Position numbers and translations under genes: made by a program. The notes beneath the pieces are model-generated. The model had not been told where the DNA came from and made no database searches. It worked only from the letters and a program-made list of their open reading frames with translations. A stretch of 39,926 nt of DNA from Candidatus Nomurabacteria bacterium RIFCSPHIGHO2_01_FULL_37_25 (lineage in GTDB: Bacteria; Patescibacteriota; Minisyncoccia; Phycocordibacterales; UBA9973), in contig MFTH01000013.1 of NCBI GenBank assembly GCA_001786765.1, forward strand, positions 85,974-125,899, written 5' to 3'. Below, in pieces: positions 8,593 through 33,454 of the stretch; the first letter of the stretch is position 1, and the number at the start of each line of letters is the position of its first letter.

Positions 8593-9564
8593 TTACAGTT
8601 TAGTCAGCGTAATCCAGTCTACCAAAGTTAAATCTTCCGCCCTTTTATTCCCCAATTCTGTCAAATATGTCAAAGTGTCTCTTTGACATACGCTTTTTAG
8701 GTTACTGGAGAGTTTTTTTCTTTTATGCGCAAAGCCAGCTTTTACTATTTTCCAGAATTTTTCTTCAAAATCTTGACTGTTCCAAGTTTTATCTTGAACA
8801 GTCGTTTTGCCTCCCTCTCCTTTATAAGGAGAGGGCTGGGGTGAGGTAAATATTTTTCGTGAGATGTTTTTTATAGCGATTATTGCTGAATTTACTTTTG
8901 GCGCCGGAGAAAAATATCTTTTATCAACTTTGGCGATCATTTTTACTTCTCCATATGCTTTGACTGAAATAGATAAGATGCTTTCTTTCTTGCCCGCCGA
9001 AGCTTTAGCGGAGGAGGGGCTATTTCCCAATATTCTTTGAGCCACTTCGTGTTGAACCATCAATACCATGCTTTCGGGTTGATTTAATCCTCCCAAAAAT
9101 TTTTTCAAAATCGCGCCGGTGATGTTGTAAGGGATATTAGCGATAATTTTATAGGTACTAGGCTTCAGGCCGTAGGCATTAGTATTAAAATCTAAAATAT
9201 CTCCGCATACTAGTATGAGAGTATTTAATTTTATCTGTTCAGCAAATTTGTTCTGCAAAATTTCATAAAGTTCTTTATCTTTCTCTATCGCTAGAACCTT
9301 GCACCTAGTCCCTAACAACTTTTCTGTCAGCGCTCCTTTACCGGGACCTATTTCTAGTATTATATCGTTCTGTTTTATTTCTCCCGCTTCAACAATCTTG
9401 CGGAGCGCTGTTTCAGATTTTAAAAAATTCTGCCCCAAAATTTTTCTTGGCACGAACTTTTTCTGGGTACGGATTTTTTGAAGCTTAAAAAATCCTGAAA
9501 TTGGCTCGCCGTCGCTCGCCAAACCCCCTCCAAAAGTTGTGCCTGCGACAAATTTTCTTTTCAT
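8593..9564 (-). CDS. rsmA: 16S rRNA m6,6A1518/1519 dimethyltransferase, carrying several palindromic insertions
   Basis: LGQNFL, ILEIGPGKGALT, IANIPYNIT, MVQHEVAQR, FSPAPKVNSA and FAHKRKKL motifs. Confidence 0.95.
   Translation of the reverse strand: MKRKFVAGTTFGGGLASDGEPISGFFKLQKIRTQKKFVPRKILGQNFLKSETALRKIVEAGEIKQNDIILEIGPGKGALTEKLLGTRCKVLAIEKDKELYEILQNKFAEQIKLNTLILVCGDILDFNTNAYGLKPSTYKIIANIPYNITGAILKKFLGGLNQPESMVLMVQHEVAQRILGNSPSSAKASAGKKESILSISVKAYGEVKMIAKVDKRYFSPAPKVNSAIIAIKNISRKIFTSPQPSPYKGEGGKTTVQDKTWNSQDFEEKFWKIVKAGFAHKRKKLSSNLKSVCQRDTLTYLTELGNKRAEDLTLVDWITLTKL
8666..8690. repeat. Perfect hairpin in-frame in rsmA
   Basis: TATGTCAAAG-TGTCT-CTTTGACATA; encodes VCQRDTLTY. Confidence 0.55.
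8775..8803. repeat. Hairpin in-frame in rsmA
   Basis: GACTGTT-c-CAAG-TTTTAT-CTTG-AACAGTC; encodes TTVQDKTWNSQ. Confidence 0.55.
8811..8847. repeat. REP-like palindrome in-frame in rsmA (family C)
   Basis: CCCTCTCCTT-TAT-AAGGAGAGGG followed by CTGGGGTGAGGT; encodes TSPQPSPYKGEG. Confidence 0.7.
8989..9020 (-). repeat. Family B palindromic insertion in rsmA
   Basis: Minus strand CCCCTCCTCCGCTAAAGCTTCGGCGGGCAAG; encodes SPSSAKASAGK. Confidence 0.75.
9437..9556 (+). repeat. Family A three-way-junction element forming the rsmA N-terminus
   Basis: Core GGTACGGATTTTTTGAAGCTTAAAAAATCCTGAA is identical to 33369-33402; long outer stem; 120 bp, in frame. Confidence 0.85.
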
Positions 9565-11726
9565 ATATAAATCGTCTTTATTCTATCTTTTTCTCCTTCT
9601 TTTTCTAATAAATCTGCTGGAATGTCGCTGATAAACTCTGATGGAGCATTAATATTGCGAGCTCCAAAAATGGTGCGAAAATTCGCAAATGATAAAAACA
9701 ATTTTTCTTTAGCGCGGGTGATTGCCACATAAAAAAGCCTGCGTTCTTCTTCCTGCGCCTCGCCGTAGCCTTGCGCGGAGGTGGAGCTATCTTCATTATG
9801 ACGCTCATGCGGGAAAAGTCCGTCTTCTAGTCCTGTGATAAAAACATGTTTAAATTCAAGCCCTTTTGAAGCGTGCACAGTCATTAACTTGACCGCATTT
9901 ATTTTTTCTTTTTTATCTTCATTAATTATTAGTGAATCTTGGTCTGAAGCTAGTGAAGCGTCTTCCAGAAGTTTTTCTATTCCACGACCGTTTTCTAGGT
10001 TGTCATATTTAAGAGCCAATGTTGCCAACTCTTTTATGTTTTCCAGTCTTTCTTTGTCTTCTTCTGTGCCAGAGGAAAGTTCATTTTCAATGCCGGACTT
10101 TTTTACCACAAATTTGATTACTTCAGATGTTTTTACTTGCTCTATTTTTTCTTTTATCTCTTCCAGTATTTTGTAAAAATTATCAATTTTAATTTTCATT
10201 TTTATGGGCAGGTTTTCGATATCATTGGCCCAGCCTTCGCCGAGGCTTCGGCGGGGCGAAGCAAAAATTTTGATTAAAGTAACTTTGCCTATGCCTCGCG
10301 CGGGGAAATTTATTATTCTTTTTATGTCTCCTAGACTATTTCTGTTTAAGGCTGCGCGCAAATATGCTAAAGTGTCTTTTATTTCTTTTCTTTCAAAAAA
10401 TTTAATTCCCAAAACTTGATACGGAATATTGTATCGTAGCATCGCTTCTTCTAAGGCTCTGGATTGGAAGTTTGCTCGATACAGAATGGCAATTTCGGAG
10501 AGAATGTTCTTTTTTTCATAAACGGAGCTGTCAGCAGGATCATCTTTTGTGGGGTCGCTGTCTCCGCGTGCTCGCGGAGCGCTGCCTCTCGGCTCGTCAG
10601 CCTGCGAGACACCCCAAAAAGATGATCCTGCTTCAGCTATTTCTAAAATCTTTGTGGCCACGAAGTCGGCTTCGTCATTTTCATCTAGCGCTTCATACAG
10701 TCCTATCTTTTCTCCCAGATCATTTTTTGTAAATAAATTCTTGTCCGGTCTGTATTTATTTTTTTTAATTACCACATTCGCCGCCTCCAAGATGTTTTGT
10801 GTTGAGCGATAATTCTCTTCTAGTAGAATTATTTTTGCATTCGGATAATCCTTCTCGAAATTTAAAATATTTTTCAAATTCGCTCCCCGCCACGAATATA
10901 TATTTTGATCTACATCACCAACTACACAAATATTTTTATTATTTTCTGCCAGCATTTTGGCCATCAAATACTGTACTTCGTTGGTGTCTTGATATTCATC
11001 TATGTGGACATATTTCCATTTTTCTTGATAAATTTTTCTAATTTGTTCATTTTCCTTCAACAATTTTGCCGCTTTTAAAAGCAAGTCGTCGAAATCCAAC
11101 GAATTTTCTTTTATTTTCTTTTTTTCATATAAATTCCAAACTTGCGCCACGATTCTCCCGAAAGAATTCGCGCTATTTATTTCTTCATAATCCGCCAAAT
11201 GCGTGAATTTTCCCTTCTCCCGCGAGATGACATTTTTTATTTTCTTCGGGTCATATTGCTTCGGGTCAATAGCAAGCTCTTTTTCCGCTTCTTTTATCAA
11301 ACTCGTGGCGTCATTCTCGTCTAGAATAGTGAAATATTTTGTCAGCCCTAAAATCCGCGCATTTTCTTTTATTATGTAAACTCCGAGAGAATGAAAAGTA
11401 GAAATAAAAGGTTCGCGATATTGCGTTCTGTCACCACGAAAATTTTCTACTGAAAATTTTCTCTGTCCGTCGTCGCCACTCCTCCCAAGGGTTCCATAAC
11501 GCAATATCGCTTTCTCTATCCGTTCGCGCATTTCTTTGGCGGCTTTATTGGTAAATGTTACAGCCAAAATATGCTCTGGCGACACGCCATTTTTTATCAG
11601 ATTTACTATTTTATGCGTTATAGTTTTAGTTTTCCCCGCTCCCGCGCCAGCTATAATAAGCAGTGGACCATCTATATGTTCCGCCGCTTCTCTTTGTTTT
11701 TTATTCAAGCCTGCCAGATGTTGCAC
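9561..11726 (-). CDS. pcrA: ATP-dependent DNA helicase PcrA/UvrD with four palindromic insertions
   Basis: AGAGAGKT, TFTNKAA, IDEYQDTN, VGDVDQNIYSWRGA, LEENYRST, TVHASKGLEF and EERRLFYVAITRA motifs. Confidence 0.95.
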   Translation of the reverse strand: MQHLAGLNKKQREAAEHIDGPLLIIAGAGAGKTKTITHKIVNLIKNGVSPEHILAVTFTNKAAKEMRERIEKAILRYGTLGRSGDDGQRKFSVENFRGDRTQYREPFISTFHSLGVYIIKENARILGLTKYFTILDENDATSLIKEAEKELAIDPKQYDPKKIKNVISREKGKFTHLADYEEINSANSFGRIVAQVWNLYEKKKIKENSLDFDDLLLKAAKLLKENEQIRKIYQEKWKYVHIDEYQDTNEVQYLMAKMLAENNKNICVVGDVDQNIYSWRGANLKNILNFEKDYPNAKIILLEENYRSTQNILEAANVVIKKNKYRPDKNLFTKNDLGEKIGLYEALDENDEADFVATKILEIAEAGSSFWGVSQADEPRGSAPRARGDSDPTKDDPADSSVYEKKNILSEIAILYRANFQSRALEEAMLRYNIPYQVLGIKFFERKEIKDTLAYLRAALNRNSLGDIKRIINFPARGIGKVTLIKIFASPRRSLGEGWANDIENLPIKMKIKIDNFYKILEEIKEKIEQVKTSEVIKFVVKKSGIENELSSGTEEDKERLENIKELATLALKYDNLENGRGIEKLLEDASLASDQDSLIINEDKKEKINAVKLMTVHASKGLEFKHVFITGLEDGLFPHERHNEDSSTSAQGYGEAQEEERRLFYVAITRAKEKLFLSFANFRTIFGARNINAPSEFISDIPADLLEKEGEKDRIKTIYI
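9753..9788 (-). repeat. Family B insertion in pcrA
   Basis: Minus strand CTCCACCTCCGCGCAAGGCTACGGCGAGGCGCAG; encodes SSTSAQGYGEAQ. Confidence 0.7.
10227..10262 (+). repeat. Family B insertion in pcrA, opposite orientation
   Basis: GGCCCAGCCTTCGCCGAGGCTTCGGCGGGGCGAAGC; encodes ASPRRSLGEGWA. Confidence 0.75.
10526..10638 (+). repeat. Family A element in-frame in pcrA
   Basis: 16-bp perfect stem AGCAGGATCATCTTTT/AAAAGATGATCCTGCT; inner hairpins CTCCGCG-TGCT-CGCGGAG and TCTC-GGCT-CGTC-AGCC-TGCGAGAC. Confidence 0.8.
11415..11510 (+). repeat. Family A-like stem element in-frame in pcrA (96 bp, 32 codons)
   Basis: Perfect 13-bp inverted repeat GCGATATTGCGTT/AACGCAATATCGC; inner hairpin GAAAATTTTC-TACT-GAAAATTTTC. 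Confidence 0.75.
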
Positions 11727-25424: not shown

Positions 25425-25557
25425 AATTACGAAACTCGTCGAAGGCATGTCTTTTTTAGGGGGTTTCGAGGCTGTCGAGCCGAGAACTTCAGGATTTTTC
25501 AAGCTTCGAAAAATCCGTACCCTAGAAAAAGACATGCCTAGAAAGAGTTTCGGAATT
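25425..25557 (-). repeat. Family A element upstream of yraN
   Basis: Minus strand GGGTACGGATTTTTCGAAGCTTGAAAAATCCTGAAGTTCTCGGCTCGACAGCCTCGAAACCCC inside the stem AGGCATGTCTTTTT/AAAAAGACATGCCT. Confidence 0.85.
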
Positions 25558-33344: not shown

Positions 33345-33454
33345 ATTCATAAAATATAATTTTCTTTCGGTACGGATTTTTTGAAGCTTAAAAAATCCTG
33401 AAGTTCTCGGCTCGCCAGCCTCGAAACCCCTTCAGAAAATTATATTTTATGAAT
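33345..33454 (+). repeat. Family A element immediately upstream of pnp
   Basis: Perfect 21-bp inverted repeat ATTCATAAAATATAATTTTCT/AGAAAATTATATTTTATGAAT around the conserved core. Confidence 0.85.

Follow-up and report, generated by a model that had tools for sequence, protein, structure and literature searches.

How does a helicase gene in a very small bacterial genome come to hold four GC-rich segments, none of which closes its reading frame? The locus that raises this question lies in a 39,926-nt stretch of contig MFTH01000013.1 from Candidatus Nomurabacteria bacterium RIFCSPHIGHO2_01_FULL_37_25 (GCA_001786765.1), the whole of which we call the window, and the gene encodes a superfamily 1 (SF1) helicase of the PcrA/UvrD type, hereafter pcrA. 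An initial annotation of the window had read the segments (D, A, B2 and B1, at sites 1 to 4) as four independent palindromic insertions and had proposed that selfish palindromes, tolerated where they keep the frame in surface loops, generate new protein sequence in a streamlined-genome lineage. We consider it very probable that small repeats, rich in GC and able to form hairpins, entered pcrA on at least three separate occasions, and that the survivors stand in frame in loops between helicase motifs, where they would be read as extra, probably disordered peptide. The setting is indeed streamlined, with a source assembly of 726,250 bases in 17 contigs (~36% GC), and since DNA patterns of the window recur in assemblies labelled Nomurabacteria, Kaiserbacteria, Paceibacterota and Patescibacteria, the host is an ultra-small candidate phyla radiation (CPR) bacterium.

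The assignment of the gene holds. Both the UvrD-helicase domain (E 3.2e-87, 293.1 bits, cut-off 23) and the UvrD_C domain (E 2.7e-61, 208.4 bits, cut-off 25.6) exceed their Pfam cut-offs in the open reading frame (ORF), and the solved Geobacillus PcrA 1pjr is similar to it over its full length (E 1.5e-148), aligning in three stretches (residues 2-73, 105-368 and 411-711). The strings GAGAGKT (27-33), TFTNKAA (57-63), DEYQD (243-247), GDVDQNIYSWRGA (270-282), TVHASKGLEF (616-625) and VAITRA (667-672), read directly from the translation, are what we take to be the helicase motifs. All of them lie outside the four inserts, which therefore fall between intact motifs as first described, and all are invariant in an alignment of the window's own helicase with the pcrA products of 18 relatives, 16 from the same genus and two from other families of the order (n = 19).

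In this alignment the four segments are gaps in most of the 18 other orthologues; the frame of the window's gene is open throughout, and every insert in all 19 orthologues preserves it. The intervals originally proposed (11415-11510, 10526-10638, 10227-10262 and 9753-9788) were all recovered on the sequence. The second corresponds to residues 363-401 and the third to residues 489-500; the third is 78% and the fourth 72% GC, in a coding sequence of 38% GC overall. Insert D is bounded by the perfect 13-bp inverted repeat reported for it and encodes a hydrophilic peptide (GTLGRSGDDGQRKF...). Compared with the 650 aa of two insert-free orthologues of the genus, the gain is ~70 aa and not the ~90 aa first estimated. 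The alignment to the solved PcrA leaves out residues 74-104 and 369-410 and is interrupted by a gap of 8 residues at site 4, so sites 1, 2 and 4 are gapped against Geobacillus as well as against most relatives. At site 3 the HMMER alignment pairs the insert with existing residues of Geobacillus PcrA; B2 thus counts as inserted with respect to close relatives, and its loop is one whose length varies.

Table 1. Coordinates of the helicase gene, its four inserts and neighbouring repeat-like features in the window.
Feature	Position	Strand	Details
pcrA/uvrD-type SF1 helicase ORF, intact	9561..11726	-	721 aa, GTG start
Insert D, site 1	11415..11510 (residues 73-104)	-	96 bp; outer arms 11415-11427 and 11498-11510; ~66-nt core 11430-11495
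Insert A, site 2	10534..10631 (within residues 363-401)	-	outer arms 10534-10548 and 10617-10631; pairing out to ~10527-10638; 60-nt core 10554-10613
Insert B2, site 3	10227..10259	-	clean 33-nt (11-codon) GC-rich insertion with 6-bp hairpin
Insert B1, site 4	9753..9788 (residues 647-658)	-	GC-rich; net gain ~5-6 codons; common to the window's genome, L014 and L015
K hairpin copy	9434..9555	-	fold z -3.5; starts 6 nt after the pcrA stop
B-like GC-rich segment within ksgA	8993..9020	-	9 extra residues

Inserts A and D both belong to dispersed repeat families. The folding energy is -43.1 kcal/mol for A (z -9.0) and -24.8 kcal/mol for D (z -6.4), with 0 of 200 shuffles as good in either case, and it is to these two inserts that the description as palindromic insertions applies; B1 (z -0.19, 77 of 200 shuffles as good) and B2 (z -0.81, 36 of 200) fold no better than shuffled sequence. 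D has four copies in the source genome (E 4.4e-10 or better), the three beyond pcrA lying within ORFs of 463, 315 and 785 aa; all four copies thus sit in long ORFs and share the reading frame used in pcrA, each with perfect arms of its own. Among 41 genomes of the genus, the D core is present in 23 and the A core in 24, with 1-6 matches per genome, and a 26-letter pattern of the A core was matched by at least 119 stretches of Patescibacteria assemblies, with Nomurabacteria, Kaiserbacteria and Paceibacterota among their labels.

The anatomy of the A family was drawn from 82 pattern matches in 80 loci, 74 of which have enough flank. The core measures 60 nt in 73 of these 74 copies and folds as a three-way junction, with variation limited to one internal hairpin that occurs in 38 distinct sequences. 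The five variable pairs of this hairpin (hairpin 1) remain paired in 71-73 of 73 copies while taking three to six pair types each, which amounts to covariation. Within a copy the arms that flank the core are complementary, over a median of 12 nt and a maximum of 30 by a gapless measure, where mismatched controls give 7; arms of different copies are unrelated, with a mean identity of 0.375 and values of 0.8 or above in 11 of 2628 pairs. Insert A of pcrA follows this layout. At gathering score, an Rfam search of the window returned four tRNAs only, without any repeat-family match. One weaker match, to RF03531 at 9681-9778 (36.6 bits against a gathering score of 65.2, from a search of the region with E up to 1), was rejected as an RNA family; RF03531 itself lies within a helicase gene, so we took the match as coding-sequence similarity.

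The A cores sit mostly within genes and in a strongly biased frame. Of all 82, 64 fall within ORFs that span at least 150 aa and extend 30 aa or more to either side of the core, 10 do not, and 8 are too near a locus edge to judge. Frame classes of the 74 flanked copies were +2 in 31, -0 in 26, three other frames once each and none in 14, so that two frames account for 57 of the 60 classified copies. Since five of the six core frames are open when read by hand, stop avoidance alone does not account for this bias, which points to selection on what is translated. The favoured frames give two recurrent peptides rich in Gly, Ser, Pro, Asp and Arg. We infer that they form a pair interconverted by in-place inversion of the whole hairpin, because of the arm offsets and because two sister orthologues, L003 and L005, hold elements of equal length at one position that show both peptides. 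Together with the intact frame in every orthologue, these counts bear out the proposal that selection preserves the frame and, provided that the inserts are read through into protein, as the frame bias suggests, that they supply new protein sequence.

Conservation of the A core appears to act on DNA or RNA and not on the peptide. The entropy profile of the core is alike in sense-read, antisense-read and non-coding copies, with pairwise identities of 0.876-0.896 within and between these classes. The pcrA DNA of the window's genome is 66-76% identical to that of its genus relatives, and 41-54% identical at third codon positions; an A core inside orthologous pcrA genes matches at 52-59 of 60 positions. 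Either the A copies are young offshoots of a conserved pool, or constraint acts on the core as nucleic acid.

The orthologues reveal how these loops change hands. Site 1 holds D in the window's genome and in L014, a shortened element in L015, an A-type element in L007, another type in L003 and a short linker in the other 14. Site 2 (within residues 363-410) is empty in four orthologues (L016, L017, L019 and L020) and carries an A core in nine, five in one orientation and four in the other; it holds D in L014 and L015, with a second element in tandem in L014, a further type common to L007 and L013, and a type of its own in each of L011 and L012. Across the 19 orthologues the same loops thus hold at least five different cores. 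L014 (genome G009) also has, in another loop, a further in-frame insert in the alignment region of residues 585-615, from a double-hairpin family with eight clustered copies in the window's genome.

Placed on a tree built from the 632 columns in which at least 18 of the 19 sequences have a residue, these states show inversion, replacement and erosion. The sisters L003 and L005 (support 97/98) have the A core in opposite orientations, and the inversion in place takes in all 116 nt of the element with its arms: the two copies agree at 95 of 116 positions when one is reverse-complemented and at 43 of 116 when both are read in the same sense, and changes in one arm are matched in the other. In L002 and L004 (support 100/100) the cores are again opposite, but the arms differ, and L004 has in addition a 12-nt tail resembling the end of the other orientation, a state that looks like replacement rather than inversion. 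The clade of the window's genome, L014 and L015 (support 95/92) has the site-1 D and the site-4 segment in common and differs at site 2, with A in the window's genome and D in the others; from this pattern, the four inserts would have arisen at three or more different times. In L015, the arms at site 1 survive together with the first bases of the D core, the rest having been deleted in frame. That a whole hairpin can be copied is indicated by two loci of one assembly (L051, 6724-6750, and L090, 338-364), which hold an identical A element including its outer arms. The elements at these two loci are abutted by CTA..CTA and TAG..TAG, which could be a 3-nt duplication and is not general.

The UvrC-like gene at C13:42180-43568 of the same genome, outside the window, repeats the pattern: a loop between two conserved blocks holds D here, is filled differently in at least eight relatives and is short in others. 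A comparison of filled and empty alleles at this site does not show which arm is native, the empty ones being too distant (~55-64% aa identity). The gene probably also carries a second insert near residues 143-167.

Segments B1 and B2 are real insertions of a less certain kind. The 33-nt block of B2 occurs only in the window's genome among the 19 orthologues, and L003 and L008 have a different 21-nt insertion there. The reverse complement of B1 aligns to B2 with a score of 29, at about the 99th percentile of the genome's 335 GC-rich islands, and B1, B2 and the segment in ksgA (Table 1) are mutually alike at this level. The original view of B1 and B2 as one family in opposite orientations therefore stands as to insertion and reverse-complement likeness; the likeness is loose and the two do not cluster, and we use 'family B' for a loose grouping. 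A selfish palindrome is a plausible origin for both. B1 looks old and degenerate, and B2 would be the young insertion of the two, within a looser group of short GC-rich hairpin-like segments.

Public contigs confirm the assembly. Logan contigs from four runs of four studies showed no differences over 9507-10313 (run X2) and 9709-10398 (run X9), both of which span B1 and B2, and contigs match across the right edge of A (e.g., 10587-11045) and across D's left edge (11019-11464); D's right edge is covered only in X2 (11454-11553). Among the pieces listed, the left edge of A (~10398-10587) is unbridged, and contigs break in the repeats. Over the A, D and K cores (K being a neighbouring hairpin family) contig depth is higher by one to two orders of magnitude, as expected because these repeats are common to many genomes in a sample. 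In X2 and X5, low-depth contigs have 10 other letters in place of 10218-10260, a net loss of 33 nt, as if from a strain or close relative in which site 3 is empty. Assembly artefact had been named as one way in which the insertions could prove false; independent contigs reproduce them.

We also built a structure model from the 19-sequence alignment, with a predicted local distance difference test (pLDDT) score of 66.9 on average. Four stretches of coil with pLDDT below 50 (79-103, 367-406, 478-501 and 639-661) match the four inserts, two of which coincide with breaks in the alignment to the solved PcrA. This agrees with the surface loops first proposed, and supports, without proving, a position in floppy loops.

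How might such elements live? The A and D families are built of a conserved core of 60-66 nt, in A a three-way junction with one covarying hairpin, and of paired arms that differ from copy to copy. The unit copied would be the whole hairpin, which can invert in place; elements would decay by internal deletion and be replaced by new insertions, and the outcome of copying, inversion, decay and replacement would be the same permissive loops filled differently in related species. Selection would remove copies that break the frame or give unsuitable peptides, leaving two reading frames, and the core would be kept at the nucleic-acid level, presumably recognised by some enzyme or process. The genome encodes three Y1-transposase-like proteins (Y1_Tnp 52.4, 31.8 and 20.4 bits; L021, L022 and L023 at C10:97533, C12:16100 and C7:13421), and each of their genes is bracketed on both sides by a short hairpin of its own in a REPtron-like arrangement, one hairpin also lying inside its gene. 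Four small GIY-YIG ORFs (87-105 aa) occur as well, and this superfamily is described as including the Ssn nucleases, which bind dispersed hairpin repeats (PMC11893778).

Several observations weigh against our interpretation. As judged by eye, the hairpins that bracket the Y1 genes differ from A, B and D, and no mobilising gene was tied to A, D or B. Beside the 10 intergenic A copies we saw ordinary-looking ORFs and no transposase, judged from ORF beginnings and without a family search. Target-site duplications are not enriched, 3-nt repeats abutting 2 of 73 palindromes against 1.1 expected, with fuzzy, fold-derived boundaries. The 82 A matches include many orthologous sites that are not independent events, and 26 of their 60 core positions were fixed by the search pattern. 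None of the 13 sequencing runs listed was of RNA, the case for translation consists of the frame statistics, and low pLDDT at the inserts is soft evidence, given that the model is weak in conserved parts too (272-284, 303-338, 592-608 and 712-721). The B segments are weak as repeats: besides their insignificant fold, neither clusters with anything in the genome at E 1e-4, and a scan with a 24-nt B2 pattern matched 19 stretches, 0 of them labelled Patescibacteria.

Some of these points invite other explanations. B1, B2 and possibly the copy-specific arms of A and D might have arisen by local template switching or slippage in loops of variable length and not be mobile DNA at all. We find this doubtful, even if the B segments have neither a significant fold nor clear relatives and site 3 is a loop in which Geobacillus PcrA has residues of its own, since B2 is a clean block of high GC content in a low-GC gene, the likeness of B1, B2 and the ksgA segment stands out among the GC islands, and the A and D cores are clearly dispersed repeats. 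In its favour, the arms differ from one copy to the next, and between sister species their complementarity persists through many paired changes, which suggests arm-to-arm conversion or template switching; the latter is reported to create perfect hairpins in one step (PMC10710096). Alternatively, the elements could be nucleic-acid structures useful to the host, such as nuclease or recombinase sites or signals in mRNA or replication, which are kept by selection on the cell with the peptides as tolerated by-products. Conservation of the core nucleotides whatever the reading frame, the hairpin and arm pairing preserved through compensated changes, the low copy number and the four GIY-YIG genes, of a superfamily said to include repeat-binding Ssn nucleases (PMC11893778), would all fit. 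This explanation is nevertheless unlikely, because a given site is patchily occupied among close relatives, one core can stand in for another in a shared loop, and remnants and empty sites are tolerated; nor did we see any association of A, D or B with a gene, although none was specifically tested.

That the inserts are absent from the protein, either as assembly artefacts or as intron- or intein-like sequences removed from RNA or protein, is highly improbable. The very stable hairpins of A and D might in principle undergo processing, and public contigs do break inside both cores, yet contigs of four independent studies reproduce junctions and both B inserts exactly and independently assembled genomes of relatives contain inserts. 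Moreover, the frame is always kept, with two frames dominant, which would not matter if the segments were removed. An intron or intein identity was rejected for want of a self-splicing RNA in Rfam and of a Hint or intein domain in Pfam: in the region, Rfam gave only the tRNAs at gathering score and the single sub-threshold match to a helicase-gene family, and Pfam only helicase and AAA-type families. Repeated colonisation of pcrA by mobile hairpin repeats remains our preferred explanation. A more far-reaching version of it is possible, and we advance it tentatively: A, D and K may represent a distinct class of prokaryotic repeat, with a three-way-junction core recognised by an enzyme, arms kept complementary locally by arm-to-arm conversion or template switching, and a whole hairpin that toggles in place. 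If so, the element would be a reversible, frame-neutral cassette that ultra-small bacteria would tolerate in their essential proteins in only one codon phase, and a steady source of new, switchable loop sequence in streamlined genomes.

The K family adjoins pcrA. Its copy beyond the pcrA stop (Table 1) has an outer stem enclosing two hairpins, a layout as in insert A. The family measures ~120-150 nt and gave ~45 nhmmer matches in the 726-kb genome, with further copies in the window at 25432-25553 and 33358-33441. Around 20 copies have identical long terminal arms, and the core is oriented about equally either way relative to the asymmetric ends. Three K copies (C10:109503-109673, C8:611-782 and C10:70239-70410) have a perfect 20-nt GC palindrome nested at the centre of one hairpin, and a near-identical 20-nt palindrome adjoins the small GIY-YIG ORF at C3:8892-9110.

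The next gene, ksgA/rsmA (ORF 8593-9564), has an ATG that overlaps the pcrA stop, and its first ~39 codons read through the K copy. Its orthologues start a few residues before a conserved LGQNFL motif, a start that is missing here. Apart from the 9-residue B-like segment, the gene contains a ~20-residue segment shared with L002; the ksgA of relatives holds an A-type element in L002 and a K/D-like one in L005, the same turnover pattern as in pcrA.

These findings bear on how CPR genomes are read. Minimal genomes are a hallmark of CPR bacteria, but their essential genes host a turnover of selfish hairpin DNA that is apparently read into protein. Across the genus, pcrA offers a one-gene series of empty, filled, inverted, replaced and eroded loop states, so that the life cycle of the elements, and what they add in new protein sequence, can be tested directly. 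Such elements inflate marker proteins that are regarded as conserved and make them variable, break metagenome assemblies at their cores, and can mislead the alignment and annotation of CPR genomes.

A literature search for such elements in CPR/Patescibacteria brought up only work on Rickettsia and no published description in these bacteria. The Rickettsia palindromic elements (RPEs) are described as ~150 bp long, with about half of the 44 copies in R. conorii fused in frame to ORFs and giving a conserved peptide (PMC10969869). Judged by that account, the likeness lies in dispersed palindromic repeats of ~100-150 bp in a small-genome lineage, which holds for A and D and not for B1 and B2, and in in-frame copies within unrelated housekeeping ORFs that yield a conserved peptide, considered compatible with the host protein's fold (PMC10969869). 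The host here belongs to another phylum, and we liken the elements by kind and not by descent of sequence. They differ further in having a fixed 60-nt core with one covarying hairpin and arms that are different in every copy, in being read in both orientations through two inversion-linked frames, and in that several unrelated core families compete for the same loops, with four inserts in one gene.

[quoted passage not shown] Unlike MITEs, the elements here show no detected target-site duplication and no parent insertion sequence was found; unlike the REP/RAYT system, the hairpins around the Y1 genes do not resemble A, B or D, and REPs are extragenic by name, whereas 64 of 82 A cores are intragenic. 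Intragenic ERIC and RU copies with open reading frames are also comparable, as small mobile intergenic repeats that occasionally lie inside genes and add peptide (PMC2759123). There, intragenic copies are the exception, and here they are the rule; as far as that source describes them, copy-specific arms and in-place inversion are not seen (PMC2759123). By analogy, then, we regard the system as a Rickettsia-palindromic-element-like one, in CPR bacteria.

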